64,000 bases of DNA, taken from a virus (Duplodnaviria > Heunggongvirae > Uroviricota > Caudoviricetes). The notes beneath the pieces were generated by a model, which was not told the origin of the DNA, ran no database searches, and saw nothing but the letters and a program-made list of their open reading frames with translations. Numbering within the stretch: position 1 is the stretch's first letter; each line of letters begins with the position of its first letter. Position numbers and translations under genes: made by a program. Shown one piece after another: positions 26,379 to 63,128 of the stretch. The DNA is taken from positions 1 through 64,000 of IMG/VR virus record IMGVR_UViG_3300017971_000019. The stretch is one strand, 5' to 3'.

Positions 26379-26401
26379 TTTTGAAAACGGGAGAGAGACC
26401 G

Positions 26402-33975: not shown

Positions 33976-34659
33976 ATGGACACAGCGCAGAGCATGATCA
34001 ACCGCGTGATCGTGCGATTGGAGGACCCGGACTACGTCTTCTTCTCGCAGGATGACCTCATCGGTGCGTACAACGATGCGCTAGACGAGATCAGCGAAGC
34101 CACGGAGATCAACGAGACCACGGCAGTCATCAAGCGCAGGAAGAAGGCGGCGTACACAGACCTCCGAGGAATCCTCCCAGCCACGGCCCTTCGCGTCACA
34201 GCCATCTGGAACCTCAACACCCAGAGGTGGCTCCACCCAACCACAGTCACGGAGCTTGATGACCTACTGGGACGCCAGTGGGAAGACAAGCCGGACACGG
34301 AGCCGCGCTGGTGGTGGATGCGCGGGCTCTGGCATCTTGGGGCGTACCCGGTTCCGAACGCCGACATCGCCAACCTCCGCATCCACTACGCGGACATCCT
34401 TCCACACGTCAGGTCAGACGGCGGGCTCTCCCAGGGTCTCGGAACGTCTCCAGCCCTACCCGACGACTTCACCGACGCCATTGAGAACTACATGCTGTAC
34501 CAGCTTCTCGCGCAGAGGAAGGAGACCAAGAAGTCTCTGGATCACTTCAAGGAGTACAAGGTCCACGAGGCCGAGCTTTACAAGCTGGCCCACAACAGGA
34601 TGAGGCGCGACAGAGCAGGACAGATGGGTGCCCGTAGAGGATGGGGGCTCCGACGATGA
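33976..34659 (+). CDS. virion structural protein (227 aa)
   Basis: ORF track. Tiles between the lysin and the tail genes. Confidence 0.6.
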   Translation: MDTAQSMINRVIVRLEDPDYVFFSQDDLIGAYNDALDEISEATEINETTAVIKRRKKAAYTDLRGILPATALRVTAIWNLNTQRWLHPTTVTELDDLLGRQWEDKPDTEPRWWWMRGLWHLGAYPVPNADIANLRIHYADILPHVRSDGGLSQGLGTSPALPDDFTDAIENYMLYQLLAQRKETKKSLDHFKEYKVHEAELYKLAHNRMRRDRAGQMGARRGWGLRR

Positions 34660-35717
34660 TCACGCTAGCAACTTCCACGGCACGCGTACAGCGCCAGCTA
34701 GACGACGAGGATGCAGACGTTTGGACCGTCACCCAGGTGCAGGACTTTCTCCAGGACGGGTACGACAGGTTCTGCCGCGACACACAGTGCATCTTCGACA
34801 TGGAGATGTACGAGGACCGTCCGCACACCGGGAACTACACCAAGGAGCACGAGAAGGACTACATGACGGACATCCCGATTCTGGCCAGATTCACGATCAC
34901 CAAGGAGTCTGACCGTCAGTATGTGGATCCCGGCGCTCCGATCCCGTCGAACCACACCAGGCAGGACGACGCGTCCTACATGAGCACCGACAGGGATAGC
35001 CTGGCGACCTCTGGATCCTCCACGAGGACGGTGGGCATCCTGCCGGCGAGGTTCGTGTCTGTGGACAGGGTCACCCACGACTGGCTCCGCCTTGCGCCAG
35101 AGAGTGCCCGCTACAACCGCCGCAACAGGAACATCTACCAGACGGAATCTGGTGGCGTGTACGCGTACCAGATGGACGAGGATGGTCTATGGAACTTCCG
35201 CACCGTGGGCGTGCCCGTAAGAGAGCTTCCGACAGTGACTATCAGCGGGATCTTCGGAGGCATTCGAGCATTCACCGACGACGAGTTCGACTACGACGAC
35301 GAGGTCGTTGTCGGGACGTACGGTGGGGTACGCCAGGTGCCGCAGCAGTTCGCATCGGGCCAGTACGGTGGTGTTCGGAAGATCATCCCGGACGCGAACG
35401 CGACGAGAGTTGAGTACTTCCGCCTCGGGAAGAATCTCAGGGCGCACCCGTTCGAGATTCCTGACAGGTACGTTCGCTACGTCGAGTGGTACGCCCTCTA
35501 CAGGGCCTACAACACACCAGGCGAAGGCGAGGACAAGGCTCTCGCTGACCACTACATGCAGCGCTTCCAGATGGGCATCGAGAAGATGAAGAAGCGCGTT
35601 GATGACGAGATGAAGGAGCGGGCGCAAGCCATGGGAACGAAGAGGCTTGGTAAGCTGGACTCGTACCTAGAGCGTTTCCCGTCCAACTACGGGTACAAGC
35701 GCCCGTTCAGGGGGTAG
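34641..35717 (+). CDS. virion structural protein (358 aa)
   Basis: ORF track. Overlaps the upstream gene. Confidence 0.6.
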   Translation: MGAPTMITLATSTARVQRQLDDEDADVWTVTQVQDFLQDGYDRFCRDTQCIFDMEMYEDRPHTGNYTKEHEKDYMTDIPILARFTITKESDRQYVDPGAPIPSNHTRQDDASYMSTDRDSLATSGSSTRTVGILPARFVSVDRVTHDWLRLAPESARYNRRNRNIYQTESGGVYAYQMDEDGLWNFRTVGVPVRELPTVTISGIFGGIRAFTDDEFDYDDEVVVGTYGGVRQVPQQFASGQYGGVRKIIPDANATRVEYFRLGKNLRAHPFEIPDRYVRYVEWYALYRAYNTPGEGEDKALADHYMQRFQMGIEKMKKRVDDEMKERAQAMGTKRLGKLDSYLERFPSNYGYKRPFRG

Positions 35718-41100: not shown

Positions 41101-41823
41101 ATTCTCGGAACGAAGAGCGGAGAGGTTCTGAGGGCCGAGCTTGGAGACGAGGACAACAGCGAGGCCATCGCCGTGGATATCCTCACTCCTATCAACGACG
41201 GCGGAAACCCACTCGCCAGGAAGGACCCGTCAGACTTCCAGATCCACTGCTACACAGCGGACGATTCCGGTACGGCATCGTTCTACATCAACGGTCTGAC
41301 GGAGCCTGTCGCGTCTGTGACGCAGACGTTCGCAACTGGTGCCAACGAGGTGTACAGAACCGACCTAACTGGTCTCGGGAAGTTCCTCAAGCTCCAGCTT
41401 GGGATCACAGGCTCGTTCAGGCAGTTCTCCATGAACGCGTTCAACGTCACCTATAGGCCTCTGCCGCAACAGGTGATGGTCTACGACACTGGTCACATCA
41501 TCGCCCCGAGGCAAGATCTAGCTTGGATCAACGAGGTGGAGATTGACGTGGAGAGCCCCGCTGACCTGGAGATGGAGATCTGGAAGAACGGTTCGCTCTG
41601 GCAGACCCTCGATGTTCCGGTCACGGCCAACATCAGGGATGTGTACACTATCGTTTGCCCGAGGCAGACGAAGGGACGCCGCCTACGCCTAGTCTTCAAG
41701 ACGACGAACTCCAACGGCGAGGGCAACGTCGGGTTCGAGCCGTACGGAATCGCGGTTCGCTTCCGTGGAAGTGGAAACTTCACAGAGCTTCCGCTCACGC
41801 AGGGTGACCAGGGGAATGTCTAG
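38110..41823 (+). CDS. large tail or internal structural protein (1237 aa) with three copies of a domain of about 70 aa
   Basis: Repeats starting around nt 38863, 39906 and 40792 share the pattern (S/T)xTTATVTHxxHxxSxGDxVxI.GAxxSEYNGV...Y(T/S)(F/M). The protein is not alpha-helical or Ala/Gly-rich as a tape measure would be. Confidence 0.75.
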   Translation: MPNLFKRAGGWKWLPDSDSVGAPDEALLRAHNTVPDEIGGRALRGGSSELYTSLGTRVDSLRTATLQKTTYRYAGVDDELVINGASSGKTFDGSGDITFGDDSYQAFAARGTKKWKHDGSTTNTWGIAKPTKKPTLAAVTRVTKEVASFDSDELPAFVINEGSAGTPQFITDYDGTANGAMQVEPDAESGIASVTKYYNTEQDFLNLQGFQGAETDVFDMRVWLENPRQVEKVTIMFGLDDPKSDSASITMTSSSTTATVTHSSHPLSDGDVVVITGATNSEFNGVFSITYINANSYSYTMSSATTPPGESDSGTVTYVTKDAFRDNHYFFDFNIRNNGKIDNKDAASSSVEAYRKSTNRLLEQLTADEITEVKTPEDAGQILKRLGGSYRGSTVQARADGTAASPAWGHFSVTRGQFKRIGDSDADWNDVTAFKVVYHAVPGEDTSKKKFGMDDAVWAGSGNRSLTGKFQAAYRYARRFKDDDGDLVYTELSPMSPLSDPITLKQQTLNVTITEAGLSGADPQVDTIWIYIFGGWLDTFYRAAVTASSINQGLTIDELTNPGAGAANFDDAIQRSRLTTHGFTYVQTGTETSLSAGELTSSSTTATVTHTNTLSAGDYVLISWAAQSEYNGVYLVDSATGSDFTYTFAGSATSPATAGGGDPSNPGVITFTPLAGYPTGTPTGAASNDLTVSIAKSEIDLMIENEIFEPGSIGPPDDIVGIAGPWNRRMFVLTKKGWLYPSSTKSPSSFSLYHAIDLRRYGEPLWLAGTANGVIAGCSKDIIRIAGTGDESADHVTVDLFPQPFSAGNPPVDKALAVDSNVIIYRAADGPMMLVGNTFQMIPFIGTELLWRGYNRHGVEALDIENGRFRFATDNHNLYMLAPEGVESETSVTITRSETTATVTHTEHGFSNGDKVRIKGASDSYYNGDHIIMVVDDDSYTFTVNGGAENPATGSIKAVLIKDPVAVWKYYQAQQEWCRLTYGYTINSITREPDGNVILGTKSGEVLRAELGDEDNSEAIAVDILTPINDGGNPLARKDPSDFQIHCYTADDSGTASFYINGLTEPVASVTQTFATGANEVYRTDLTGLGKFLKLQLGITGSFRQFSMNAFNVTYRPLPQQVMVYDTGHIIAPRQDLAWINEVEIDVESPADLEMEIWKNGSLWQTLDVPVTANIRDVYTIVCPRQTKGRRLRLVFKTTNSNGEGNVGFEPYGIAVRFRGSGNFTELPLTQGDQGNV

Positions 41824-44399
41824 TGGCAGGAAGAATCAGGCACCCGGACGACGCGACCCACGACATCCAGGTCGCGTTCAGGGACGTAGACGACGAGCTA
41901 ATCGCAATCGCTCGATTGGCGGAGCAGGCCTCTAGGCAGACAGAGGCCTCTGCGGTCGAGATCAAGAGGGTCGAGGACAGCCTCAACCAGAGGATCGACG
42001 CTCCTACCCACCTAGACCACAGGGATGTGATGCGCGGTGCCGGCGACGGCCACGCCATCGGCTACGTTCCAGACCCTGGTCCGACTCTGGACACGACGAA
42101 GTTCCTCAGGCACGACGGTGCCTGGGAGCCGATCTCTGGAGCCGCTGTCGATCACGGGAGTCTTGGTGGACTTGGAGGCGACGACCATACCCACTATCTA
42201 CTAGCGGATGGCACTAGGGCACTTACTGGGAACTGGGACGCCGGCTCATTCCAAATCCGAGCCGAGACCCTCCGCTCAGACGTGGCCACCGGGACCGCTC
42301 CGCTCACGATAGCGTCCACGACTCTGGTCACAAATCTCAATAGCGACCAGCTTGATGGACAAGAGGGATCGTACTACCTGGACTCCGCGAACTTCACTGG
42401 GACTGACTGGACGGACCTGACGGACGCTGGGGACACCACTCTCCACGGTCACGACATTACTGGCCTCACTGGCTACAGCAACGACCATGGGGCCCTCGAC
42501 GGGCTCGCGGACGACGACCATACGCAGTACCTCCTGGTGAATGGGACTCGCGACATGACGGGGGACCTCCTCCCGAACGCGACGGGCACCCTGGACCTCG
42601 GGGCGACGACGGACTACTGGGCCGAGTCCTACGTCAATCTCATGTACGTCGGGACAAGGGTGGAAGGACAACTGGCCAACCTTGAACTGAGGGCGCCGTC
42701 TGGGAACGTTCAGCTTTCCCTCGGCGGTACGTACACATGGTCGGCAAGCTCGACAGGGTTCTACCCGTCTGGGGCAGGAGACGCAGACATCGGAACGAAC
42801 TCTCTTCCGATCAGGGACCTATACATCGCTGACCAGGTCATCTCCTCGGTGGCGACCGGAACAGCGCCACTCACAATCGCCTCCACCACCCTAGTCTCGA
42901 ACCTGAACGCTGACCTTTTGGACGGTCAGGAAGGGAGCTACTACCTCGACCTGACGAACGCCACGAATCAGAGTGCCATCGACCATACGTCGATCAGTAA
43001 CATCGGGACGCAGAGTCACGCGGCTATTGACTCCCACATCATAGACACGTCGATCCACTTCGCACAGACTGGGATCGATCATGGAACCATCGGTGGTCTC
43101 ACGGACGATGATCACACGCAGTACACGCTGATCAGTTCCCAGGCAGGAACTCCAAGCTCTACGCCGTCTCGTGTTGGGCTCATCAACGTGGACACGAGCG
43201 CAGAGACGGCCTATGTCTCTACTGGTACGGCAAGCTCTGCCGACTGGGACCTTATTGAGACAGGAGGCTCCGTTGATCACGGTGGCCTCCTGGGCCTTGG
43301 GGACGATGACCACACGCAGTACTTCCTGGCAGACGGATCCCGCGACCTGACCGGCGACCTGGTCATGAAGACCGGGAACACGATCTACGCCTACGGTGAG
43401 TACACAGACGCTTCGAACTACGGTCGAGCTTACTTCGAGGCGACTGTCGCTTCTGCGGCTATCGGTTTCGAGACTGCCGGTACTGGGGATGACAAGCCTC
43501 TCGTCATCAAGAACGAGTCGAACGGGCTCATGAGCTTCCACACCAACAACACCATGAAGTGGCTGATCGAGGCGGGTGGGGACTTCGAGCCAGGGGCGGA
43601 CGACACGTATGACATCGGGGCGTCAAGCTGGCAGGTCGCGGATGTCTGGACGACAGGACTGAAATCCGACGGCTACATCGACAAGAACGAGAACTCCCAC
43701 TTCATCGACCTGCCCCTCCGCGCCCCCGACGGACGGATCGTCACTGTCGAGGATGACTTTGTCCACGGGGGTCCATTGGTGTCCGGGGACATTGGTACGC
43801 TCAATTGGAACATCAGCGGGGGGACGGGGTACACAGTCGGCTACGGAAGTGGCACCAACAACGGACACCCCGGACTGGTCCGCATCAAGCCAGACAACGA
43901 CACCGGGGATGCCGTCTACCTCTTTGCCAATTACACCACCTACACGATGTTCAACGGGATCGAAGAGTACTGGCAGACTTGGATTCTCTATGACGCCCAG
44001 AGCACCGAGGGTGAGGTGAACATCATCGTTGGGATCAACACAACCGTTGACTACGCAGCAGGCACGGACGGGATCTACTTCTACTGTGACTACAATGCCA
44101 ACAACAACTGGCAGGCGAGGACCATCGCGTCCGGCTCCGCAACCGACACAGATACCGGAGTGGCGCACCGATCCGGAGACAGCGCCAACGACTACTTCCG
44201 GTTCGACATCCACTACACCCCGACTGCGGTGAAGTTCTACATCGACGGATCTCTGGTGGCGACCAACACCACGAACATTCCGACCAGTGACGCCATGATG
44301 CCAGCCCTCGCGGTGGAGTGTGACGCGACAGGGGCAGGTAACTCGCTGGAGAACGTCTTCCTCGACTATTACGCAATGACTTACAAGGTGGACCGATAA
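41823..44399 (+). CDS. tail fibre protein (858 aa) with repeated HG.LGGL.DDDHTQY motifs
   Basis: Four copies of DDHT(H/Q)Y at 42181, 42512, 43098 and 43305. A duplicated segment ATGTAPLTIASTTLV(T/S)NLN(S/A)D.LDGQEGSYYLD at 42288-42380 and 42856-42950. Confidence 0.7.
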   Translation: MAGRIRHPDDATHDIQVAFRDVDDELIAIARLAEQASRQTEASAVEIKRVEDSLNQRIDAPTHLDHRDVMRGAGDGHAIGYVPDPGPTLDTTKFLRHDGAWEPISGAAVDHGSLGGLGGDDHTHYLLADGTRALTGNWDAGSFQIRAETLRSDVATGTAPLTIASTTLVTNLNSDQLDGQEGSYYLDSANFTGTDWTDLTDAGDTTLHGHDITGLTGYSNDHGALDGLADDDHTQYLLVNGTRDMTGDLLPNATGTLDLGATTDYWAESYVNLMYVGTRVEGQLANLELRAPSGNVQLSLGGTYTWSASSTGFYPSGAGDADIGTNSLPIRDLYIADQVISSVATGTAPLTIASTTLVSNLNADLLDGQEGSYYLDLTNATNQSAIDHTSISNIGTQSHAAIDSHIIDTSIHFAQTGIDHGTIGGLTDDDHTQYTLISSQAGTPSSTPSRVGLINVDTSAETAYVSTGTASSADWDLIETGGSVDHGGLLGLGDDDHTQYFLADGSRDLTGDLVMKTGNTIYAYGEYTDASNYGRAYFEATVASAAIGFETAGTGDDKPLVIKNESNGLMSFHTNNTMKWLIEAGGDFEPGADDTYDIGASSWQVADVWTTGLKSDGYIDKNENSHFIDLPLRAPDGRIVTVEDDFVHGGPLVSGDIGTLNWNISGGTGYTVGYGSGTNNGHPGLVRIKPDNDTGDAVYLFANYTTYTMFNGIEEYWQTWILYDAQSTEGEVNIIVGINTTVDYAAGTDGIYFYCDYNANNNWQARTIASGSATDTDTGVAHRSGDSANDYFRFDIHYTPTAVKFYIDGSLVATNTTNIPTSDAMMPALAVECDATGAGNSLENVFLDYYAMTYKVDR

Positions 44400-44680: not shown

Positions 44681-45418
44681 ATGTTTGGAATTGGACGACT
44701 ACTGAAGGCGCTTGTTCCGCCGCCTCCGCAGTTCGGGTTCTTGGGGCTTCTGGCGGCGGCTGTCCCGGCTATCGTTGGGGGTATCGCCAAGCACAAGGCA
44801 GCGAAGAAGCAGGCTGACTTCTCGGACAAGATGTACCGGGACGCGAAGGCTGATATCGACGCAGACCGTGCGGACCAGTTGGCCTGGCTGGAGCAGATGA
44901 CCCCGCAGTTCCAGTCTCTGGCTGGGATGGCGATGGGGCCTCAGATCACCAACACGACAAGCTCGTACAACGACATGCTCCGCAAGGTCGTTGATCCTGG
45001 CCAGGCGAGGATGAAGGCTGCGCTCGACAAGCAGTACTTCCAGGACATCACAGCCCCAGCCCTAGAGCCCGGATACGCGGCAAGGCAGATCGCTGCCATC
45101 AACGCGGCCAACGCTGGGGCGGAGCAGGCAGAGCGCAATGCGCTCATTCGCCGTGGAGGATCGATGGACATGCCGCTCGCATCGACCAGGGCGACGACTG
45201 CCGAGAAGCTCAACTTCATGGCCGGTCTTCCGATGCTCAAGGAGCAGATCAAGGACAAGAGGAGGGCCACCGCCGCCAATTGGATGGGTCAGTGGCAGGG
45301 GCAGCACAAGAAGGGGACGAGCAGCCAGACGACAGAGGGCCCAGCGAACGTCGGTGCGGCTCTCAGCGCTCTCGGCGCGATGCGTCCACCTGAGCGTCAG
45401 ATTCTCTACAGGGGGTAG
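44681..45418 (+). CDS. putative internal virion protein (245 aa) with a hydrophobic N-terminus
   Basis: GAGGAGG ribosome-binding site. ORF track. Confidence 0.55.
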   Translation: MFGIGRLLKALVPPPPQFGFLGLLAAAVPAIVGGIAKHKAAKKQADFSDKMYRDAKADIDADRADQLAWLEQMTPQFQSLAGMAMGPQITNTTSSYNDMLRKVVDPGQARMKAALDKQYFQDITAPALEPGYAARQIAAINAANAGAEQAERNALIRRGGSMDMPLASTRATTAEKLNFMAGLPMLKEQIKDKRRATAANWMGQWQGQHKKGTSSQTTEGPANVGAALSALGAMRPPERQILYRG

Positions 45419-45420
45419 CG

Positions 45421-45747
45421 ATGTCTATCATCTACGCGGGCGAGAGGCCCAACGACAGCGGGTGGAACCTTGTTGGAGACCTAGCTCAGGTTGCCGCGAA
45501 GACGCTGCCTGGGATGTTTAAGAAGCCAGAAGTGCAAGAGTTGCCAGGCGCGAAGAACTTCGCGAACCCAGAAGCGATGGTTCCGGCAGTCACACCAGTC
45601 ACACACAATCCTGCGGCTCCGGTTCCACTTGGTGGCGGCATGGGCGGACTTGGGGACTTCGGTGATCTGGGAGACTACAAGATCCCGAGTCTCACGGTCG
45701 CTGACATGATGCTCCCGTACTTCGGCGGCTTCGGACCTCGTTTCTAA
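45421..45747 (+). CDS. putative internal virion protein (108 aa); its N-terminal 30 aa are paralogous to the N-terminus of the next gene
   Basis: MSIIYAGERPNDSGWNLVGDLAQVAAK aligns with MAQIIFTGKRPEDSAWATLVPGLAQAAS. Confidence 0.5.
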   Translation: MSIIYAGERPNDSGWNLVGDLAQVAAKTLPGMFKKPEVQELPGAKNFANPEAMVPAVTPVTHNPAAPVPLGGGMGGLGDFGDLGDYKIPSLTVADMMLPYFGGFGPRF

Positions 45748-45759
45748 GAGGAGTGAGCC

Positions 45760-47586
45760 ATGGCTCAGATCATCTTCACAGGTAAGCGCCCAGAGGATTC
45801 AGCCTGGGCGACTCTCGTTCCAGGGCTCGCTCAGGCTGCGTCTCTCGCATTCGCTGAGAAGAAGCGGCAGGACCAGTTGAAGATCGAGGCCGAGGAGCGA
45901 GAGCGCAAGAGGGAGCGAGAGGACTGGACGTTCGAGACAGAGCAGCAGAGGCGCGAGGAGGAGAAGGAGGACCGCGTCGCTGAGACCCAGTCGAAGACGC
46001 ACGAGATCCAGAAGGCTCTAGCGGAGGAGCAGGCGGAGAGGGACGTTGACGAGGCGTACGAGAGGGCTGGCACTGTTCAAAAAGGGCTTCTGGAGGACTA
46101 CCTGAAGCCGACCGAGCTAAAGATGCCTGGTGCTGTTTCGATGGAGAGAGAGGTCGCTCCGGGCGTGACTCTCGACAGACAGCAGGTAGGAACAGAGGAA
46201 GCGGTTGACATTGGTGACAGCGCCAAGAGCATGGAGGCGCTAAACGCGCTGATGGAGAGTGCTCCAGGGGCGAGGGAGTTCGCGGAAAGGCTCCAGGGCG
46301 ACGTGACGATCCCTGGGGTCGAGAAGTACGGCGTAGAGGATGAGACGTTGGGTAGGGGTGAGCTTGCCGCTCGTGCGTACGACGACAGGCAGAGGGCAGC
46401 AGCCGCGAGAGCGCGTGAGAAGGGCGAGGGCCCGATTGTCTTCCCGGATGACGAGAGTGTGCCCCCGTTCTTCAGGGGCAGGACGTTCAGGCCAGGCGAG
46501 GACGGGTACGAGATGGCCGAAGAGGTCGCGCCAGAGTACGCGAAGAGTCTGTTCGCTTCCAAGAAGGCTGGCTCTCTGAAGCAGGCGTACGACTCTAAGT
46601 CCGGTCGTAAGGTCTTCGTTACGGACTCAGAGATCCAGTCGGGCGGCGGTCGCTACCAGCCTATTTCCGCCGCACCTGACGACGCGCCGGACAAGGAGAA
46701 CAGGTTCCTGCGTGGCGCAGCCTGGGACATCGTTGAGAACGCGAGGGACGAGTGGCTCGCGGGCAATAGGAAGAACATGGACCTGACAGATGCGGAGAGG
46801 AAGAGGTTCCTCGCGTCTTTGCCGGTAGAGATCCTAGGCCCAGCGCAGGGCGTAGCTGACCTCGACCTCGACCCGGCTAAGGCTGGCCGAGGAGTGGAGA
46901 TGCGCTCCGCGATCATCCAGACTGCGAAGATCCTGAATCCAAACTTCACGCAGCACGGGTTCGAATTCAAGCGCGATTGGGCGAAGGGAAAGCCAGCGAC
47001 TGCTCGCCGCGCCGTCAACGACGCTATCGCGGACGTTGGTCGCGCCTTCAAGCTCTCAGAGGAGTTCCGTCGCACCGGGATGCCATGGATCAACAAGGGC
47101 TACGTCTGGTTCCTAGAACAGGTTGGATCTCCAGAGGAGAAGGCTCTCCGCACCAGGCTGAAGACTCTCGCTACCGAGTTCTCGAAGGCGCAGAACAACG
47201 GAATGGCCGCGAAGCAGGAAGAAATCGAGGAGGCGTACAGAAGGTACATGACCTCCGCCACCCCAGAGGAACTGGAGGCCATCCTCAGAGAGGATCTCCA
47301 CTCCACGGTGAACCGCATCGTCACTCTCGAAAACGACTACGAGCGATTCGTTGGCGAGCCCGTACCGACGCCTACCCTCAACAAGCAGACCATCGAGAAG
47401 GCTCGCGAGGCTGGCTACTACGACATCTTCGTGGATGCCGGCGCGGTTCTCACTGAGGGTGGCGGCGGAGGAGCACCTGGGGACGAGCCCATTCCTGAGA
47501 TCGGAGCCGTTGGGCAGACGATCACACGCAACGGAAAGACGTACGTCTGGGATGAAGTGGAGGGTGGATTCACCCCGCAGGAATAG
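45760..47586 (+). CDS. putative internal virion protein (608 aa), charged and coiled-coil-rich, with the shared N-terminal tag
   Basis: GAGGAG ribosome-binding site. ORF track. The N-terminus is paralogous to that of the 45421 gene. Confidence 0.6.
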   Translation: MAQIIFTGKRPEDSAWATLVPGLAQAASLAFAEKKRQDQLKIEAEERERKREREDWTFETEQQRREEEKEDRVAETQSKTHEIQKALAEEQAERDVDEAYERAGTVQKGLLEDYLKPTELKMPGAVSMEREVAPGVTLDRQQVGTEEAVDIGDSAKSMEALNALMESAPGAREFAERLQGDVTIPGVEKYGVEDETLGRGELAARAYDDRQRAAAARAREKGEGPIVFPDDESVPPFFRGRTFRPGEDGYEMAEEVAPEYAKSLFASKKAGSLKQAYDSKSGRKVFVTDSEIQSGGGRYQPISAAPDDAPDKENRFLRGAAWDIVENARDEWLAGNRKNMDLTDAERKRFLASLPVEILGPAQGVADLDLDPAKAGRGVEMRSAIIQTAKILNPNFTQHGFEFKRDWAKGKPATARRAVNDAIADVGRAFKLSEEFRRTGMPWINKGYVWFLEQVGSPEEKALRTRLKTLATEFSKAQNNGMAAKQEEIEEAYRRYMTSATPEELEAILREDLHSTVNRIVTLENDYERFVGEPVPTPTLNKQTIEKAREAGYYDIFVDAGAVLTEGGGGGAPGDEPIPEIGAVGQTITRNGKTYVWDEVEGGFTPQE

Positions 47587-47589
47587 AGA

Positions 47590-50500
47590 ATGGCAAAGCT
47601 ATACCTCGATCCAGAGACAGGCGAAGAAGTCACAGCGAACGAGTTCAGGAGGCGTCGAGCCAGGAGGCAAGCCGCCTCTGAGGGGCAACCTATCGCTGAC
47701 TTCATGTCCCCGACGCGTCAGCTACTTGGGATCCCAGAGCCTGGGACCATGTTCTCTACCGAAGAGCAGAAGGACGTTCCAGAGGGTCATCTGTCTGGGT
47801 ATAGGAAGAGGAAGACTTACCTCGATCCGGCCACCGGAGAAGAGGTTGATGAGATTGAGTTCCGTGCCCGCAAGGCGAAGCGTGAGCGTGAGAAGGAAGA
47901 GCTAGATAAGAACGCAGCGGAGCGGAAGAGGGCCGAGGAGATAGCGGCGAAGGACCGCGAGATTGCGGAGAGGGTCACCCAGGGGATCCCGTTCGAGCCG
48001 CTTCGGAAGCTTGCCGCGTCGAAGCCAGCACGCCTTGCCATGGAGACCGCCACGGGGCTACCCCGCACCATCGGTTTGGACTTCCTCCTTGGCCCAGCCG
48101 AGTCTGACGTTCAGTTGCTGGGCGCCGGCGAGAGGGCCGCGACGAGGGCTGGCCGCAAGCGCGGCAGGGCCATGATGCCGACGGTTGGTGGTGGCGGAGT
48201 TCCTGGCGTCCCGGACATCCCGACCGGACTAGAGGCTGATGAGGACAGGTACGTCACAGATCTCCCGACCGGCGTCAAGGAGCTTGGCGACAGGACATGG
48301 GCGTCCGACCTAACCCAGGAGACCATCGACAAGATCAAGGCGATCCAGCTACCAGGCAGGAACCCGTTCACCGACGAGCCGCTCGCTGAGGGCGAGCAGC
48401 CGTACGCGTCTGTCGGCGGAAGTGTCGGGGTCTCGCCAAGGGTCGCTGAGGCCCTTCGCGATCCGTTCATCTACAACAACGAGGTCGAGTTCTCGCGTAC
48501 CGCCAGGTGGAGGTCCGGGATTGAGGAGGCCATTCGTCCAGCCATGTTCGGCGCTGGGGAGAGCTTCGAGACAGCGAAGGATGTCGCGCTCCCAGCCGCT
48601 GTTGCGTACGGCGCAGTTAGGCGACCATGGCACACGATTCCTGCTATCGCTGGTATCGAGCTTATGTCCATCCTTGGCGAGAAGGGCGCGAGGGCGGCTT
48701 CACAACACCTAGGCGAAGACGAAGAGCGGATGGCCCAGATCGGGCGAGAGATTCCGATGGCCCCTGCCGGCCTGAAGGTCGGCCCAGCATTGACGAAGGC
48801 GGGTCTCAGGGCTACATCTCCCCTACTGGGGAAGGCGAAGACTCGCAAGTGGCTTGCGCGGGGCGCTAGGACCAACAACAGTCGCGAAAGGTCCATTGAC
48901 CTTGAGGTGCAGCGAGTCACCGGGAAGACTCTGCTCCAGACTCTCCGAGACGTTGGGCGTGGCGCTAAGTGGTGGACTCAGGAGAGGACCACCGATGGCC
49001 CGTTCATGGCCATGAGGCGTGAGCTAGGTGCTCGTAAAGATCTGGCTAAGGGCTTCCAAACTCCGTACGCGAGGCGCGGCATCACTCAGGAAACAGCGGA
49101 GAAGCTGAGAGACCTCCAGGATCCGCGCTGGAGGGATAAGGCTGACTGGTCACAGCCTGTTGGGGAGAGGGGCGACTTCCTCGGATGGAGGGCGAATAAG
49201 CAGGGCAAGCTGGAGCCGGTCTACGCGCCGGCATCTCCAGTCAGAACTGATGCCCCGCCTGGCCCAGGCAGGGGTGTCATCTACGACCAGGAAGGCAACG
49301 TCAAGGACACGTATGACCTGGACGCGCAGGGCAAGCCTGTCGGTGCGTCTGGAGGAGTAGACGTTCCCGAAGCCGTTCGTCGCTACGCGCCGATGACCGC
49401 TGGGTACATCGCCCAGGGCATGACATTCTCGAAGTGGCCACTCCCTCTTGGAAGGTTCGCAGCCGGTCGTTTTGCAAACCTCGGTGCCAGAAGGCTTGTC
49501 TCCAGAATGCTGGAGGGTGTGAGGAGGAAGAAGCCCGCCCGCAACGTTGAGGCGTTCGACGCGGAGGCCAACGAGTTCGTGATGGTCCCCGAGGACGCAC
49601 TAATCAACAACCCTGCGAAGTACAAGACCAAGGGTCAGGGTGCGCGAATCCTCAAGGAGAGGGACGCTCTTCGTAAGGCGAGGGAGAAGGAAGCCGATCA
49701 GGCTCGCAAGGCCAAGGAAAAGGCGGACGCTGAGGCGAAGAAGGAGCAGGAGAAGCTCCAGAAGGCCGTAGAGGACGCGATCAAGCAGGCTGAGGCTGAG
49801 CAGCAGTCTCGCCAGGGCATGTCCTCGACGCTCTCCCCGCAGGAGGGCTCCAAGATCATGGAGATCATGGAGCACCAGGTTGCGGTAGAGCGCGTCATGA
49901 AGGAGATGGGCGTTGACCGCGTAGAGGCGGAGAGGATCCTCAAGCAGCGCGGCGATGTTACTGCTCCAGAGACTCCTATCGAGTCCGCGAAGTTCAAGTC
50001 TGGAGATATCACAGAAGCCGATATCTTGAAGGCTGCTCAGGATGGCGCGACCCCGGAACAGCTTCGCGCCATGCGCGAGAAGCTCGCCCAGAAGGGTGAG
50101 CCAACGAAGCCGGCAGAGCCTCCAAAGCCTGAGCCTCCTGCGGAGCCTGTCGCAGAGCCTGCCCCAACGAAGCCGAAGGCTCCCGAGGGTGAAGGCGGAG
50201 CCGAGACCGTTGAGTCTCTTGGTGGGACGGGACATCTCTCGAAGGGCCAGCTTGGTGCCTTCAGGCAGAGAGTGGAGATGGGCGAAGACCCGGTCACCGT
50301 CCTGAAGCAGATCAACGAGTACAGGCGGAAGAAGGGACAGTCGGTTCCAGAGTCGAAGCCTACTGAGCCGGCGAAGGCGCCGCCTGCTGAGCCTCCAGCG
50401 GACACGTCGCTCGACAGGACAAGCGGGACTATCCGCACGCGTCGAAAGAAGCAGGAGCGAGACAGGAATCTCGGTGAGGACGCCCCCGAGGACGCAGCCG

Positions 50501-53500
50501 TGTTTGAGCCCATCGTAAAGGGTCAGGAGGTTGGAGACGGAGTCAGGATCGGTGACACCTACGTAGACGTATCGGGCGAGACTCCACGCACTGTTCGCGT
50601 CGAGGGACAACTAGACACGCGTGGGAAGATCCGCCTTCATCTCGTTGACGCAAAGACGGGAGACTGGGTCTTGGGTGAGCCGACGAACGGGCACAGTTTC
50701 CTGAAGGGGCTTAGAAAGGACATCAAAGACGGCCTGATCGAGAAGCCAGCCGAGAGGCCAACCAAGCCAACCGCTCCGAAGGGCGGGAAGTCCGGTAAGG
50801 CTCAGGAGCCGTTCGACACGACCACGCCTGAGGGTCGCGCAAAGGCGTTCGCTCGCGAAGGTGGTCCTACCGACGCCGAGTGGAACCAGATGGGCGGCAA
50901 CATCGCGAAGCGTGCGTGGCTTGAGTCGCAGGGGAAGACAGGCGAGCCTCGCATGACCGGGCCTACGCCGGAAGGGCTTGAGGGGCCGGCGGGCAAGGCT
51001 CTCTCCGAGACGCAGACGCCTCCGACAGAGAAGCCGTCGAAGGGGAAGGGCAAGAAGAAGAAGGGCAAGCCTCGTCCAGGAGTCATCCGCAAGGGTGACG
51101 TTGTCGAGTTCGCGGACGGGACTCGCGGGATCGTCAAGGGCAAGGGAAGGAGCGGGGGCCTCAAGGTTCAGGTCGGAGAGACGACTCGTCTCGCCACACC
51201 GGACCAGGTGAAGAAGGTCGAAGCGAAGGCTCCGACTCCAGAGGAGCGCCAGGCTGCGCTCGACAAGGTCAAGGAACTCGGTGAAGGCAACAGGGGAATG
51301 CTGGAGCGCGAGTTCTACGAGTCCGGCCCAGAGGCGGCTGTCATTCTGGGCACGGAGAAGATGGGCCTCGAAGAGCCGGTAGTCCGCTCGTTCATCGAAT
51401 CCCTCCCTGAGACGAGGCCCCCAGCCACCCCAGCCGAAGCCGCTGTCGAGATCACGAAGGGCAGCTTCAAGGGCCAGAAGGGTGTCCCAATCGGGGAGGC
51501 CGACGCCAAGGGCGTGACCAACGTCATGCTCGAATCCGGCGAGGTCCAGCCCTTCAAGGCCGGCGAGTTCAAGGTGCTCAGGGGATCCGGGAAGGACGCA
51601 GATATTGCGGCCACCATCAAGAAGGCCGAGGAGGACGCTGGGATCGAGTGGGGAGAGCCCCTAAAGGGCCCTGAGAAGGCCCCAGAGGCTCCAGGAGCGC
51701 CTGTAGAGGGCAAGAAGGCCCCAGAGGCCGGGAAGCCGGCTACGGGCCGTAGGGGGGCTTGGAGCGGCCTTGACGCGGCTGTTCGAGAAGGGGACCAGGC
51801 GAGGGCCAGCAGCATCGCCCGAGGGGCTGTCAAGGACCCCGAGGCCAGCGCCGTGGTCGGCGGGCAGGGTGTCAGGGTCGGGGACGTGATCGAGTCCGGG
51901 CCGCACGCCGGGAAGATGGTTCTGGAGGTTCAGGACGGGGCCGTCGTCCAGATGACCAAGAAGAAGTTCACCGGGGGTGGGGGTCGCTACCAGGTCGGAC
52001 GGGTGACCACCGTCGGGGAACTCACCGCCCGCCGTGCCCGCCCGAACTACCAGGGCTACTACTCGCAGCTTGAGAGGGTGCTGGAGACTCCACACGTTCA
52101 GGAAACTCAGGTTGCCCACGACTGGCTCCGCTTCCTCAAGAAGCGCAAGCGCGGCGTGACTGCCGACGAACTCTACTGGACAGGCCTAGAGGAGTTCCTG
52201 AAGTCGAAGAAGCCGTGGGAGCGAGTAACCAAGGGCAAGCTCCTTCAGTACCTCAAGGACAACAAGGTTGAGTTGTCCGAGTGGAGGCAGGGCGACATCC
52301 ACCAAATCGACTTCAATAGCCCGGCCCAGGTGGACGCGTACGTTCGTATGTGGGAGCGCAGGGCTAGGGAGTCCGGTGTCTACACGGAGCAGGAAGTCCG
52401 CAACATCGGTGCCGCGATGCGTAACGACCCGATGTCTAGGATTGACCAACTCAGGGAGGACATCACGAAGCCTGAGTACGGCGACTACAAGGAACCGGGC
52501 GGAACGAACTACCGCGAGTTCATCGTGACGATCCCGTCGAAGAGTGTCCCGACTCCACTCCGCTATCGCGTCGAGAGCATGGACAGGTCCATTCCCCCGG
52601 AAAAGAAGGCGAGGGTGGACGAGCTAAACGAGGAGAAGGGCGCACTGGAAGCCGCCCTGGTCACAGAGTTCGGCGCAGTCTTCCGAGTGAGGAGGGGCGA
52701 GCCGAGAGTCAAGCCGCGCCACCTCAAGGATAAGGATCGAATCCTAGAGATCAACAAGGAGATCCAGAAGATCCGAGAAGAGGGCGGGGAACTCTGGACC
52801 GTCGAGTCTTACTGGGCAGACAACGGAGTGCAGGCGAAGTCTCCAGGGACAGGAGGGACTTACAAGTCCAAAGCGGAGGCAAAGGCGGCAGCGGAGAAAC
52901 TAGCCAAGGAGAAGCCAACCCACGGCAGGCTTCACGCCAAGTGGGACGCACCACACTTCTCGCATCTCAACGCACAAGGGGGCATCCTCTACCACATCCG
53001 CATGACGGACAGGATCGACCCGGCAACCGGAGAAAAGATCCTCTTCGCTGAGGAGTTCCAGTCCGATGCCGCATGGGACGCCAAGAAGAAGGGAGTAAGG
53101 AAGCCAAACAAGGCCTGGCAGAAGGATCTGGAGAGGTTCAACGAGCTTAGCGATAGGAATCGAGAGATCAGGAACAAGCGCGACACCTCTTCCCTGACTA
53201 AGGACGAGAAGCGTGCGCTCAAGGCGGAGTACGAGCGAAACTCCGAAGAGATGCAGCGCATCAACAACAAGTACGGCGAACACCCAGGCTCTGGCGTACG
53301 TGGCTTCATGGGTCGGAAGGACGTGCCTACCGAGATGCCGTACATCGAGTCCACCAACAAGTGGCTCGACCTGGCCACGAAGCGATTCATCAAGATGGCC
53401 GTAGAGGAAGGCTACGATCAGGTCCGCTTTACTTCCGGCTCGATGCAGACTCGTCGCTACGACCTCTCTCAGAGGGTGGATGAGGTCCGTTGGGATCCCG

Positions 53501-56500
53501 CAGAGAAGAGGCTAGAGGGATACAAGGACGGCGAGAACATCCTCAACGAGTACGATGTCCCTGCTGAGAAGCTCGCGGACTACATCGGTGAGGAACCGGC
53601 TGCGCGGCTCAGGAGGGCGGCGCAGAACTGGAAGGAGCCCGACCCGCTTGGTGGATGGGGGATCGAGCAGGCAAGGCGACCAGGCGAGTTCTACGTCATC
53701 GACCCGAATGGCCAGTACGTCTACACCAGGGAGGGTAAGAGGGACCTCTTCTACGGTAAGGATGAGGCCAGGAACTACATCGAGGAATCCATTCGTGAGT
53801 CTGGCGACACAGTGAGCCAGATCCCGGCAATCTCTGGACAGGATCTCTCGATGGGCTCCACTGGCCTCGCGAAGCTCTACGACGTGATGATTCCGCAGTC
53901 CTTCAACCGCGTCCTCAAGCCGTTCAGGACTCAGGGTGAGACCATCTACCGCCTAGAGGGAGACCGCCTGACGAAGACGGTCGAGGGCGCGAAGGGACCG
54001 AAGCTCGAAGAAGGGCAGATGGGGGAGAATTCGTACACCAAGAGGTACGAGGTCAGGGAGCACCCGGATCAGGCTCTGGCAAACCAGGGCGCAATGGCCA
54101 TCTATGATCTGGGCACCGAGACGTGGGCGAGGTCCACTGACCCACGTATGCCTATCGATCCTGATCTTATGGCGATGAGAAAGCGCCAGGGGGTAACGGA
54201 CACCACTGGAGCTAGGGCCAACTACTTCAAGAGCGCAGCCGACGCACGTCGCGTAGCGTCTGAGATGAACCTCGACTACGCTCACGACAGGATGGCTGAT
54301 GGCGTTCTTAGCCGCTTCAAGTACAACGTCGTTGATGCGAAGACAGGCAAGATCGTCAGGACGGTCAATGAGCCCTGGCAGACGGTGGACGCTGTGCGGG
54401 AACTCGAAGGCAAGAGTGGCCGCGAGTACGTTGTAGAGCCTGCCGGCGAAACCGTACACACCATCAGGATCCCGGACGAACTCAAGCGCCAGGTCGAGAA
54501 GGAAGGGTTCCCTCAGTACAAGATCGGCAAGGAAGACCTCGTAGAGACCCCGATCACGACGGAAGACGTGCGCATGGCTCTGCCAGAGGCGCTGCGTCCA
54601 CTCCTCAAGAGGGCCACGAGGACGGAGACCAGGCCGGCGGGGAAGGGGAAGGGAGAGGTTCGCGCAGACGCGAAGATGGGACTCCGTGCCGGCGACTGGT
54701 ACATCGACACTCCTCACGGTGGAAGGATCATCATCAAGCAGAACGGGTTCATCAGGATCGAGAACCCGGAGCAGTCGCTGGTCGGATACTCGCCGGAAGT
54801 CATCGCAGACGTGAAGGCCGGCAAGCGCGGCGCACTGGGCCGCATGGAGACGCCAGGCCAGGGTCCGCTGGTTCCGAAGTACCGCCGCAAGTACGGCATC
54901 GACCGCGACATGCAGATGCGCATCCTCAACGCGGGAGTCATCCCGCACGAGATGGGCCACATCTTCATCGACTACTTCGCGAGCCCCAGGGAGAAGGCAC
55001 GCATCGAATCCTGGTTCAGGGAGGAGATGGAGGCGAAGGGCCTAGAGAAGTATGACGAACTGTTCGCTGAGGGCTTCAGGGAGTGGTTCGAGTCCTACCG
55101 CTGGAAGAAGAAGCCTCGCAACGCTGTCGAGAGGGTGTACAAGGCGATCTACGAGTTCGTTGCGAACGTCTACGACACCTTCCGCCCGACAATCGAAGGC
55201 CAGTACAGGAAGGTCGCCCAGGGCAAGCCGTTCAAGCGTGGTCGCCACCAGGATGGATGGGTAGGAAGGACTGCTAAGGAGGCGTACCAGATCGCGGCTC
55301 GCGAGGTCGGAGACAGCGAAGCCAACTTCATGAAGTGGTTCAAGAAGTCTGTCGCCAACACCCAGTGGGACCAGATGAGCAAGGGCCAGATGGGCGGTCT
55401 CAAGCTTGGCAAGCACCCAGAGGGCTACCCGCACTACGGCCACGACAAGATGCCGTTGGAGCTATACCACGCGACCATCGCGAAGGCAGACTTCGACGCG
55501 TTCAAGCCTGGTAGCAGGCCAAGGTACGTGGACCCGGCCAACCCAGACGCCGACTACGGACGTGGCGTGGACGGCATGGGCATCTGGTTCGCAGAGGATG
55601 CCGAGTTCGCGAACTCCAAGCTCCGGTTCGACTGGATGGCTGAGGACATGAGGCGAGGCGGGCCTCCGCCGGACCACAACGCCATCCGCAACCCGGAGGG
55701 CCCCATTCCCGAAGGGGGAAGGATCATTCCCGCTTATCTCTCCCTCCAGAAGCCGCTCTTTGTACGCGAGAGGCGCGATCTCGACTACGAGGTAGCGAAG
55801 AAGTGGGCGCAGATCGAAGCCAAGGATCCCGCAAAGAGTGCGAAGGCCAAGAAGAGGAGCAAGAAGGCGAACAAGGCTCTCCTGAAGGTCGATAGGGACG
55901 TGAGGAACTACGTCAACGAGCTTGCCGACAAGTACGCCGTTCCGAAGGGTGGTGGAATCACGTTCCAGGACAGGCTGCTTATCGCCTACGACAGGATCAA
56001 CGCTGTCGAGCGTGCCAAGCTCATGGAGTACCGCAGGGCGGGTGAAAAGGCTAGGCTGGAAGCCGCTATCGCTGAGGCAGAGATGACCGGCAACCCGGAG
56101 GCGTACCTACAGACCCTCAGGCGCGGAGACCCGAAGGACATCGCGAGGGCCAAGAAGGCTCTCCAGTCCGAGGGCTACGACGGGTTCCTCGTGGGCGACG
56201 ACATGGGCTTCGGTCGCGCATGGGTGGTATTCGAGGGCGAGCAGATCAAGTCCTCCAGGGCGAACGTCGGGACGTACGACCCGAAGAACCCTGAGTACCG
56301 CCACATGATCGAGCCTGAGCGTGCGAAGAAGCTCAAGACCAGGAAGCACCTTCCAACAAGGCGGGAGTTCGCAGAGGCAGTCCAGAACACCAAGGGCGCG
56401 GCGATCACAGAGGATGGGCTCATCATGGAGCTTCAGCGTTGGCAGAAGCCAGACCAGGCTGGAGCACTCTCCATCAGGACCGGGGTCTTCTACCTACCTA

Positions 56501-59500
56501 AGGGTGACCGCAAGGCCAGCGCTTACAGGATCACTCCGAACTCGAAGCACACCGGGGCTGGTATCGCCTACGGCGGAACCGATAAGGTTGAGGGGCAGAC
56601 CCTCATCCGCAAGCCTCTGTTCGTGCGCGGAGCTACCGGAGGCAGGGCCCCAGAGGAAGCCTTCAAGATCATCAAGGGAGCCCCAGCGTTTTCGAAGCTC
56701 GAAGACCAGCTTTGGTCGATCCACATGAGCGACTACTCGATGCGCGAGTGGCCGGACATGATCCACGCGAAGGCTCGTGCAGAGAAGGCGGCGAAGGCCT
56801 ACTCCGAGGCTCGTGCAGAGCACGGCCAGGACTTCACGAAGTACGAGGACATCTACAACGAGTACCACGACGCCCAGAGGCTCTTGGCAACGACCCGCGA
56901 CAAGATCCAGACCAGTGAGATCGAGAGGGTCCTACAGGACTTCGGCGGCGACCCGTCCATGGCTCGCGACATTCTGGCCAACTCCAGGGAGGGCAACCAG
57001 CTTCGCTACGCGATCCAGGAGAACATCATCGCCCACGTCGTGAGGGACGAGGGCTTCGACGCTGTGGTCGGCTTCACGAAGGGCAAGAACGGAGCGAAGT
57101 TCTCCGAGGTCTTCGACGTTCGCGAGACCACGTACCCGGACACCGGGTATGTCCAATCTGACATCCACCCGTCATTCATCCCCGAGAGCGTCGGTCGCTA
57201 CCAGGTCGGGCAGAAGAAGGGCGACACGAGCACCCCAGAGTTCAAGAAGTGGTTCAGGAAGTCCACCATCAAGGACGGGAACAAGCCGAGGCCGGTGTAC
57301 CACGGTACTGGCAAGGAAGGATTCTTCGAGTTCGAGTGGCCAGAGCACGACCTCGGGTTCCACGTTGGGTCCAGGGCGCAGGCAGTCGAGGCCGGTGTCA
57401 CGAATAGGATCAGCAGGCTCAGCGAAGAGATGAGGGCTCTCCGGGCGGAGGCGCTTCCGTACGCACAAGCCGGGAAGGAAGTGCCGAAGGAGATCAAGGA
57501 CAAGATCGCCAAGAACGAGAAGGAGGCGAAGACGAGCGGGCGGATTCCTGGACAGGAGGGCTTCGAGGAACCACGCATGATCGAACTGTACGCTCGCGCA
57601 GAGAACCCGCTCCGTCTCCATGACGTTGGAGACAAGTGGGGCTACTACGCGTACGACTACCTACCAATCGGAAAGACCGTACAGGGCGGCAAGCCTGGGT
57701 TTACTCGCGAAGAGGTCCAGATGCTGAGGGATCTACCTAGGAGGTTCAGGCCGGCGGAGACAGTCAAGCTGATCAAGAGCAAGGGCTACGACAGCATCGT
57801 GTACAAGAACGAGCACGAGGGCAGGGTTTACGACAGAGCGACAGGAGAGCTAAAGTCCCGCGATGACTCCTACATCCTCTTCGACAAGAACCAGGTGAAG
57901 CAGACGAGCAACGTCACATGGGGAGAGGGCGGAGACTTCCGCTACCAGGTCGGGCCGAAGGGTGCTGGCAGCAACCTGAAGAGGTCACTGGAGAAGCTGG
58001 AGTCCACCCGCAAGGCCCGCAAGCCGATCAAGGGTGTGATGGACAGGAAGGCAGACCTCTCCCCTAGGTTGGTGAAGAAGATGGACAGGAAGGCTACTCC
58101 GAGGTTCTCGGTCGGAGAGGTCTCCGATGTCCTGCCGGAAGCGCTCAGGGGTATGCCCGAGATCTACAGGGACCAGTTGACGGACGCCCTCACCTCCAAG
58201 AGGTTCGAGGTCAAGATGACCGAGGACACGAAGAGTGACTGGAAGGGCACGATCTACCAGTACAGGCTTAGTCCGGCGCGTCCAAAGCACGCGAGGGTGG
58301 AGCCTCCGAGGTGGGAGGGCGAAGAGCCTAACGCCTGGTACGACCCAGAGATCGCGGAACTCAAGAGTACATCAGAGGGCGGGTTCCGACAGATCGGGTA
58401 CGACCTGAAGCCTGGCTGGACACGCAGCGTGGAAGACCTCACCTCTGGTGACGGTACGACCTACTTCCGTGGCATGAGCGCAGAGGAGTGGGTGGAGATC
58501 CAGCGCACAGGCAAGATCAGGTCACAGGGTGCCTACAACCTCGGTGACAAGCAAGTCGGCAAGACCTACTACTCGGTGAGCCCAGGACAGGCGGAGTCCT
58601 ACGCCGCCGGCTTCCAGCCGTGGCAGAGGACCCCAGCGCACGGGAAGAACGCGTACATCGTGGAGATCAGGAACCCGAAGAGGAAGGGCACCCTAGAGCA
58701 GGGTGATGAGCGTGGGGTTCCGGGCGAGATCAACGCCTCAGAGATCGTCAACGTGTACGAAGGCGTGCCGTATTACTTCAAGGACGGCAAGGTCGAGTAC
58801 ACGCCAGATACCGTCAGGGGGCCAGGTGGAGAGGGTTGGGTGAGCACCCACGTCGAGGGCTCTCGCTACTCCCCAAGCACACACGTTGCATGGCGCAAGA
58901 TCGATGGCGAGAAGGTAGCCAGGCTCCGCGCAGAGGCGGAGACGGTGACCCTCACGGACGGCGCGATGGCTGTCGAGCCAGCGGCCAGGTACGCGCTCTC
59001 AGAGGCTGGACGCAAGAGGCTCCGTGAGAAGCAGATGGAAGAGGCCAGGAAGATCGCTGGCGAGGGTGCCCTGGTCGATGAGGCGACGATGGAGAAGTAC
59101 TTCCGCGACGAGGCCTCCATCGCCCGCGAGGTCCACGACGACTTCTCCCGTCTCGGCTACAAGGAGAGCTTCGCTGACCATCTCAGGGCCATCAAGACGA
59201 ACGCCGACGAGTACTACATGAGGAGCCTCGACTTCACCACGATGTGCAGGAAGAGGTACGTCCTCGGCGCAACCATCGACGCCATCCAGCAGAAGCTTGG
59301 CCGTCCTCTCGACGCCAAGGACATCATGAGGGTGGGAGCCCAGATGAGGCTCCACGGCATTGAGACCGCCTGCGGTCCATGCTACGTAGAGTCGAAGCGT
59401 CTCCAGAACGCTGCCATCATGGAGCAGTTGAAGACCGGCTGGTACAGGCCAATGCCGAAGATCGACCCGAAGACCGGCAAGAAGATGCGCGATGACAACG

Positions 59501-62227: not shown

Positions 62228-62376
62228 AGGGTAAGGGCAAGGCCATTCTGAAGGCCGGAACAGGCGGAGGCGGCAAGGGAAAGCCGTCCCTCGCAGCAAA
62301 GCCGTACGTGGGCAACAAGGGTGGTCAGGTCCGTTCGGGCAAGGCCTCCAACGCCAGCAAGTACTCGAAGAGGTGA
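62224..62376 (+). CDS. small Lys/Gly-rich basic protein (50 aa)
   Basis: ATGA overlap with the upstream gene. Confidence 0.35.
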   Translation: MKGKGKAILKAGTGGGGKGKPSLAAKPYVGNKGGQVRSGKASNASKYSKR

Positions 62377-62380
62377 CACC

Positions 62381-62956: not shown

Positions 62957-62958
62957 AA

Positions 62959-63126: not shown

Positions 63127-63128
63127 CC

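Follow-up and report, generated by a model that had tools for sequence, protein, structure and literature searches.

A common N-terminal module on two adjacent genes preceding a giant polyvalent protein gene in an uncultivated podovirus-like phage

The ejection-protein cassettes of the phages N4, T7 and P22 (gp7-gp20-gp16 in the latter) lie in a late operon adjoining the tail and adaptor genes, and their largest member is enzymatic. In cassettes of the T7 and N4 type, the proteins reside inside the virion and leave it ahead of or together with the DNA, and the small member (outer-membrane pore) and the large member (inner membrane) have membrane-spanning segments. How the internal ejection proteins of podoviruses are loaded and ordered is poorly understood, above all for giant multi-enzyme effectors. 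Here we analyzed a stretch of 64,000 nt from a virus of the Caudoviricetes (IMG/VR record IMGVR_UViG_3300017971_000019, positions 1 to 64,000; in the following called the window). The phage is uncultivated and known from metagenome contigs only (source samples: JGI 3300017963 and 3300028840, ENA ERZ27256783 and ERZ27256798, and SRR14699985). Two consecutive genes in the window, encoding proteins of 108 and 608 amino acids (aa), begin with a common sequence of about 27 residues, which we call the module, and are followed by a gene for a giant protein of 4825 aa.

Short N-terminal sequences shared by several phage proteins have been described in other contexts. The capsid-targeting sequence (CTS) of phage T4 comprises about 10 residues, ends at the cleavage site of gp21 and works via the scaffolding core; the myovirus prohead has a protease. 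In Staphylococcus phage 80alpha, the scaffold and the major capsid protein share an N-terminal leader that is removed by the host protease Prp and mimics the N-terminus of the host ribosomal protein L27. For the T4 protein IPIII, the first 10 residues suffice for encapsidation, according to Mullaney and Black 1996 as cited in PMC8402733. In P22, gp7 and gp20 bind procapsids via N-terminal portions (residues 21-154 of gp7), and the incorporation of ejection proteins requires the scaffolding protein. The host protease OpdA removes the first 20 residues of P22 gp7, which are largely dispensable, and the assembly signals of the P22 ejection proteins have so far been mapped to large N-terminal portions only (PMC8402733). 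In full virions of N4, residues 1-16 of gp52 are found in 12 copies in the adaptor lumen, and in a predicted complex of gp51 and gp52 it is the N-termini that hold the partners together (PMC13434306). Within the ejectosome, the N-terminal regions of T7 gp15 and N4 gp51 contact gp14 and gp52, respectively (PMC8954989, PMC13434306). Polyvalent phage proteins are predicted to be packaged and injected, with fusions to MuF or portal as the known handles (Iyer et al. 2017, PMC5512222), and proteomics has detected one of them, the 2811-aa gp47 of phi24B, in virions (bioRxiv 10.64898/2026.04.10.717836).

The three genes of the window resemble the N4 cassette in order and size classes (108, 608 and 4825 aa compared with 150 aa for gp52, 644 aa for gp51 and 3500 aa for gp50), and the succession of a small, a medium and a giant protein also parallels gp14, gp15 and gp16 of T7 (PMC8954989). 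As in N4, T7 and P22, they adjoin tail and adaptor genes, and the largest product is enzymatic. By analogy, these genes most likely form an ejection-protein cassette, in which the 108-aa protein would be the small, the 608-aa protein the medium and the giant protein the large member; the 108-aa and 608-aa proteins are probably virion-internal. No homology was detected between N4 gp51 and the 608-aa protein (hhalign probability 0.25%). In nine schitoviruses, the small and medium proteins share no N-terminal motif, whereas here both do. The large member is a polyvalent protein with ART and methylase domains and not an RNA polymerase or transglycosylase as in the known cassettes, and an extra 245-aa membrane protein is encoded before the pair.

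Like the CTS of T4 IPI, IPII and IPIII, the module is a short N-terminal peptide on several proteins, whose packaging is presumed here. It differs from the CTS in its length of ~27 residues and its lack of sequence similarity, in that the scans turned up neither a protease gene nor a conserved site of cleavage, and in that the biggest putative cargo protein is untagged. The arrangement of one short N-terminal sequence on two consecutive genes recalls 80alpha; unlike the leader of that phage, the module had no cellular protein counterpart among 1.84 billion proteins. The giant protein, like the polyvalent proteins described by Iyer et al., combines an ART-PolyVal domain with a DNA methylase and lies among virion genes. 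In contrast to the MuF- or portal-fused polyvalent proteins, the shared module sits on its two small neighbors.

Two adjacent genes with a common N-terminus

The gene for the 108-aa protein (45421..45747, + strand) begins with the module in codons 1-27 (45421..45501; MSIIYAGERPNDSGWNLVGDLAQVAAK), followed by a body rich in proline, glycine and alanine that is probably disordered. In the gene for the 608-aa protein (45760..47586, + strand), the module occupies codons 1-29 (45760..45846; MAQIIFTGKRPEDSAWATLVPGLAQAASL) and precedes a long charged predicted helix and a mostly helical body. Together with the tail genes and the giant gene, both genes form a tightly packed series on one strand that appears to be a single operon. 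Shine-Dalgarno-like sequences lie upstream of the 108-aa gene (AGGGGG, 45410-45415) and of the 608-aa gene (GAGGAG, 45748-45753). Each start is the earliest start codon possible in its frame; the module begins at Met1 of both open reading frames (ORFs), with no in-frame start upstream of either. The spacer between the two genes measures 12 nt and leaves them in the same reading frame; including the stop codon, its sequence is TAA GAG GAG TGA GCC. The consensus of the module is M-x-I-[IR]-[YF]-x-G-x-R-P-x-[DA]-S-x-W-x-L-[VF]-x-x-L-A-[QE]-x-A (~27 residues), which reads as a short hydrophobic strand that leads through the loop G-x-R-P-x-x-S-x-W into a beginning helix.

A sequence-only reading of this DNA had proposed that the first 30 residues of the two proteins are paralogous, with the proteins being otherwise unrelated in size, and formal alignment reproduced the similarity with a slightly shorter extent. 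BLASTP aligned residues 2-26 of the 108-aa protein with residues 3-28 of the 608-aa protein (14/26 identical, 1 gap, E=4e-5), so that the shared stretch amounts to about 26-28 residues and not 30. No significant segment was obtained by BLASTP outside the N-termini; the bodies are unrelated. We also compared the first 35 residues of the 51 predicted proteins of the window, all against all, by Smith-Waterman alignment. Among the resulting 1275 pairs, the 108-aa/608-aa pair scored 63 and the runner-up 37, and none of 20,000 composition-preserving shuffles of both N-termini reached 63 (maximum 41).

For non-circular profile tests, the database consisted of 1451 six-frame segments of the window and of a related 3.8-kb Logan contig, L001. 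A profile built from the two large-protein modules had the two small-protein N-termini as its best non-self matches (E=1.4e-6 and 0.032), and a profile from the two small-protein modules matched both large-protein N-termini (E=1e-5 and 7.8e-5). All remaining segments had E>0.4. The similarity is significant, reciprocal and positional, and the paralogy of the two N-termini is confirmed.

The module is restricted to these two protein families. Searches of all six frames of the window with a regular expression and a hidden Markov model (HMM) found it on the 108-aa and 608-aa genes alone, and the same searches of ~10 kb downstream of the window yielded no further copy. In a profile search of 1.84 billion representative proteins, the true matches again belonged to these two families alone, which makes the module specific to this phage lineage. 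Seven other matches from that search were rejected as linkers of C2H2 zinc fingers (HTGERPY) or tandem-repeat artefacts (multi-stretch repeats). Relatives with genomic context were sought in INPHARED (blastn, tblastn), IMG/VR, JGI metagenome contigs and GTDB genomes, where none was found; L001 was the only one obtained.

The 108-aa protein contains no cysteine and no hydrophobic segment, judged by composition and a Kyte-Doolittle scan. It had no Pfam or PHROGs match, and its only database relative was the protein itself. In its AlphaFold2 (AF2) model, which is of low confidence (predicted local distance difference test score, pLDDT, 53), a helix at residues 15-28 is the only structure. The 608-aa protein has its long charged predicted helix at about residues 20-115 and its best conserved body part toward the C-terminus (about residues 360-560); its AF2 model is poor (pLDDT 47), with the long helix alone reaching 67-79. 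No credible relative of the 245-aa, 108-aa or 608-aa protein was found in Pfam, PHROGs or the PDB, nor was homology found to proteins of T4, T7 or N4. A match of the 608-aa protein to Pfam MAP7 (17 bits compared with a cut-off of 28.5) was implausible, as were two PDB chains hit by its profile at E about 0.009, both of them 3-oxoacyl-ACP synthase III.

Conservation of the module in a second lineage

Among 5.8 billion database clusters, the 608-aa protein had one relative, P0002, with 602 aa and 61% identity. It is encoded on L001, where the gene order (224 aa, 114 aa, 602 aa, start of the giant protein) matches that of the window, and the module is present on both corresponding genes (MPIRYVGARPQASGWGLFGDLAEAAGK and MAQIIFTGERPKASAWDYLVPGLAQAASL). 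Eleven columns are invariant in all four copies (M, I, G, R, P, S, W, L, L, A, A). Between the 608-aa protein and its L001 ortholog, 26/32 of the first residues are invariant. For the 108-aa protein, 16/27 residues of the module are identical to the L001 ortholog, and the remainder is about 23% identical. The module is the sole clearly conserved part of this protein, with conservation ending abruptly past residue 27.

We estimated nonsynonymous (dN) and synonymous (dS) divergence between the two lineages. The module of the 108-aa gene gave dN 0.256 and dS 1.26 (dN/dS 0.20), that of the 608-aa gene (codons 1-33) dN 0.125 and dS 0.80 (dN/dS 0.16). Codons 28-58 of the 108-aa gene are effectively random between the lineages, with a proportion of nonsynonymous differences (pN) of 0.72. 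The near saturation of synonymous sites while the modules themselves change little shows purifying selection in the two lineages. Four further contigs (L002-L005) are near-identical to the window, with 0-1 single-nucleotide polymorphisms per cassette gene, which is too few to gauge selection.

Within the window, the DNA of the two modules is 57% identical, with a proportion of synonymous differences (pS) of 0.66. Even the codon families differ for conserved residues (AGC/TCA for serine, AGG/CGC for arginine). Because the DNA has diverged while the peptide has been kept, the duplication must be old, and conservation acts on the peptide and not on the DNA.

In both lineages, the small and the medium gene share a reading frame; the gap between them measures 12 nt with two stop codons in the window (45745-45762) and 9 nt with one stop codon in L001 (1726-1740). 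Read-through of the 108-aa gene would yield a fusion with a second, internal module; there is no evidence that read-through occurs.

The gene upstream of the pair encodes the 245-aa protein (44681..45418, + strand), which has one strong hydrophobic segment near its N-terminus (residues 15-38, Kyte-Doolittle score 2.12). At a threshold of at least 1.4 over 19 residues, no such segment exists in the 108-aa, 608-aa or giant protein. The 245-aa protein ends in RPPERQILYRG and the stop codon (45398-45418), its L001 ortholog in KPIEHQILYRG and the stop codon (L001 1354-1374). The last six residues, QILYRG (45398-45415), are invariant, although the two proteins are only 49% identical overall. QILYRG resembles the first strand of the module (QIIFTG or SIIYAG). 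In the six-frame translation of the window, an intact [QSP]I[ILR][YF].G pattern is confined to these three adjacent gene termini, a fourth match containing a stop codon. The module HMM was not significant at the QILYRG C-terminus of the 245-aa protein.

Possible roles of the module

With about balanced confidence, we favor the reading that the module is a lineage-specific, selected interaction peptide, through which both proteins would use one docking site or bind each other during assembly at the portal vertex. The modules of both proteins would bind one partner surface, which could belong to the scaffold, the portal or the adaptor of a particle under assembly; alternatively, the 108-aa and 608-aa proteins might bind each other's N-termini. 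In both cases, the two proteins would enter the particle jointly and take up their places at the portal vertex. Neither version needs cleavage of the module, for which there is no evidence. In gp51-like proteins of nine schitovirus genera (L007-L015), the first ~16 residues are almost invariant (MAQ[IL]TWRNVDAPxFSG) while the rest is 25-30% identical, and for the most distant homologs the match to N4 gp51 is limited to residues 1 to ~110. This near-invariance next to a diverged remainder indicates that N-termini of this class are under strong functional constraint. An equivalence of the 608-aa start MAQIIFTGKRPEDSAW (MAQI-x-aromatic) with the gp51 start was also considered and was unsupported by hhalign and by HMMs in both directions.

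Several points weigh against this interpretation. By the HMM, the module is missing from the giant protein, which is presumed to be the main cargo, and from the 245-aa protein, so that it is not the general encapsidation signal of this phage. For neither the 108-aa nor the 608-aa protein did searches of Pfam, PHROGs and the PDB, profile-profile comparison or HMMs reveal homology, by sequence or by profile, to characterized ejection proteins, and we infer the virion presence of both, as well as the assembly or docking role and the identity of the partner. The conservation rests on two lineages, that is, on one orthologous comparison per gene. Both AF2 models are of low confidence, and in that of the 608-aa protein the module may run straight into the long helix and so be integral to the fold, not a detachable tag. 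The earlier proposal that the gene block encodes packaged cargo gains from where the block lies, closing a structural module of podovirus type and immediately preceding the polyvalent giant, but the reading of the shared N-terminus as a general cargo tag is not supported. At present, it is best described as a lineage-specific sequence feature in two metagenomic lineages. A short selected module on two cassette members would nevertheless be a compact handle on loading and a possible tool for capsid cargo.

A role after ejection is a tentative alternative that we hold to be rather unlikely. Here, the small and medium proteins would co-assemble as a trans-envelope channel or bind the same component of the host envelope. 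The contacts of the medium proteins of T7 and N4 with the small protein in the ejectosome (PMC8954989, PMC13434306) point in this direction, as does the almost invariant N-terminus of gp51-like proteins throughout the nine Schitoviridae genera. The known cassettes, however, use dissimilar N-termini for such contacts, gp52-like and gp51-like proteins being unrelated, and identical modules would favor one common site over complementary pairing. The absence of a hydrophobic segment from the 108-aa protein also speaks against this alternative. Sequence alone does not separate a post-ejection role from one in assembly.

We regard as unlikely that the module is a strict T4-like capsid-targeting propeptide, which would direct both proteins into the procapsid and then be cut off by a prohead or host protease. 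The sequence-only reading had noted a resemblance to capsid-targeting sequences of T4-like and other phages, which are often removed by the prohead protease. Such a function would fit the N-terminal position on two consecutive genes for putative internal proteins and the abrupt end of conservation after residue 27 of the 108-aa protein, as expected for a separable leader. Precedents are the targeting sequence of T4 IPIII and the first 20 residues of P22 gp7 that OpdA removes (PMC8402733). Against it, the larger ORFs of 7694-62956 yielded no match to a prohead protease family in Pfam and PHROGs searches, and none was present in the precomputed Pfam matches of the genes in the ~10 kb downstream. 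The longest contig on record for the cassette proteins measures 92.5 kb, so that part of the genome may lie beyond the region scanned, and a divergent protease or one of the host may still act. The four junctions between module and body (AAKTLPG/MFKK, SLAFAE/KKRQ, SLGFAA/KKQH and AGKGYEA/YRGW) share no motif of the type L/I-x-E or S/A/G-x-E. In the 608-aa protein, the conserved stretch appears to continue into the predicted long helix (in a low-confidence model), and the giant cargo protein has no such leader. The likeness to capsid targeting is thus retained with regard to the N-terminal docking known from P22, T4 and N4, whereas the part concerning removal by a prohead protease found no backing.

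A more far-reaching version of the docking idea is likewise improbable in our estimation. In a podovirus lineage that packages a polyvalent effector of 4825 residues, the module would serve as a portable peptide for encapsidation and positioning. The tagged proteins, and possibly the 245-aa protein with its QILYRG terminus, would attach by strand addition at a single symmetric site of the portal vertex, and this docking would fix the order of exit from the capsid for the ejectosome and the giant effector. If true, this would be a second capsid-targeting system, mechanistically distinct from the T4 CTS.

Still less probable is that the genes are not virion-internal and function in lysis, tail assembly or as other late accessory genes, with the module binding a common chaperone or membrane partner such as the 245-aa protein. 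In its favor, homology identifies neither protein, and the 245-aa neighbor combines a single N-terminal transmembrane-like segment with a C-terminus resembling the start of the module. The 108-aa protein, however, has neither a cysteine (so no lipobox) nor a signal-like segment, and the tight same-strand packing in one apparent operon with the tail genes and the giant gene matches the position of the N4 and T7 ejection cassettes. A spanin or lysis pair of the 245-aa and 108-aa proteins was rejected for the same lack of a lipobox.

That the module is the neutral remnant of a partly duplicated gene, that the likeness is due to chance or that it reflects a nucleotide-level function (translation initiation or RNA structure) is highly improbable. 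A local duplication probably gave rise to the shared segment, the two genes being adjacent, in frame and 12 nt apart, but chance is excluded by BLASTP, reciprocal profiles and shuffles, and the amino acids have been kept despite 57% DNA identity and saturated synonymous sites, with dN/dS of 0.16-0.20 between lineages. Folds of 91 nt at the two start codons were no better than those of shuffled sequences (z -0.57 and -0.31), and an RNA or translation-initiation element was accordingly rejected.

Genomic context

All genes called from about 5.7 kb to the 3' end of the window lie on the + strand. Upstream of the cassette, the late structural module includes genes for the terminase (11311-12966), a probable portal (12939-15143), an acidic candidate scaffold protein (21124-22212), the major head protein (22523-23575) and further structural proteins. 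A head-to-tail adaptor of SU10 type is encoded at 34641..35717, also on the + strand (Pfam PF24175 SU10_adaptor, 34.4 bits compared with a cut-off of 27), and marks a short-tailed, podovirus-like virion. Genes for large tail and fiber proteins reach to 44399 and are followed by a 72-aa ORF and the 245-, 108-, 608- and 4825-aa proteins.

The giant gene (47590..62067, + strand) encodes an ART-PolyVal domain (PF18760, 57.5 bits, cut-off 31.2), a second methyltransferase domain (Methyltransf_23, 22 bits, below the cut-off) and a C-terminal C5 DNA methylase (PF00145 DNA_methylase, 99.2 bits). Its PHROGs match was a DNA methyltransferase, and the Pfam and PHROGs scans gave no match to MuF. The occurrence of several unrelated enzymatic domains in one polypeptide among virion genes identifies it as a polyvalent protein. 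Close to its N-terminus (window 47590-47900) lies a duplicated motif of ~25 residues, YLDPETGEEVTANEFRRRRARR and YLDPATGEEVDEIEFRARKAKRE, which is kept in L001 (3557-3838) and may be an assembly or DNA-binding element of the giant protein itself.

From 43671 onward, the near-identical contigs L002 and L003 match the window at 98.5% identity; upstream of this position they show no nucleotide similarity to it. The recombination breakpoint at ~43671 lies inside the gene for the 858-aa fiber (41823-44399), and L002 and L003 combine the same cassette with other tail genes (696, 996 and 423 aa), which looks like the swap of a host-range module. The 858-aa fiber contains repeated HG.L.GL.DDDHTQY.L.DG.R motifs, and the 1237-aa tail protein encoded before it (38110-41823) has three immunoglobulin-like repeats of the form SSSTTATVTH..H.LS.GD.V.I.GA....NG.

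Some genes within the head and structural module are unusual for this location, namely a methyltransferase/radical-SAM/SPASM fusion (26381-27817) and an SPFH/Band-7 protein (19181-19735). Between the portal and head genes, a 436-aa protein (17871-19181) matched phrog_704 ('DNA repair exonuclease', E=3.5e-114) with no Pfam match; the exonuclease annotation and the genome position agree poorly.

Two unusual proteins are encoded 3' of the giant gene (window 62321-63503, L017 1540-2680). The first, of 197 aa, is rich in proline, glutamine and glycine and ends in GYGGYGG, which recalls the GG[FY]G C-termini of the 108-aa protein and its 114-aa ortholog. The second, of 124 aa, is lysine-rich and carries the internal repeat TKRGQAVESFDxMMKEGVRKRR. 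Both may be further internal proteins.

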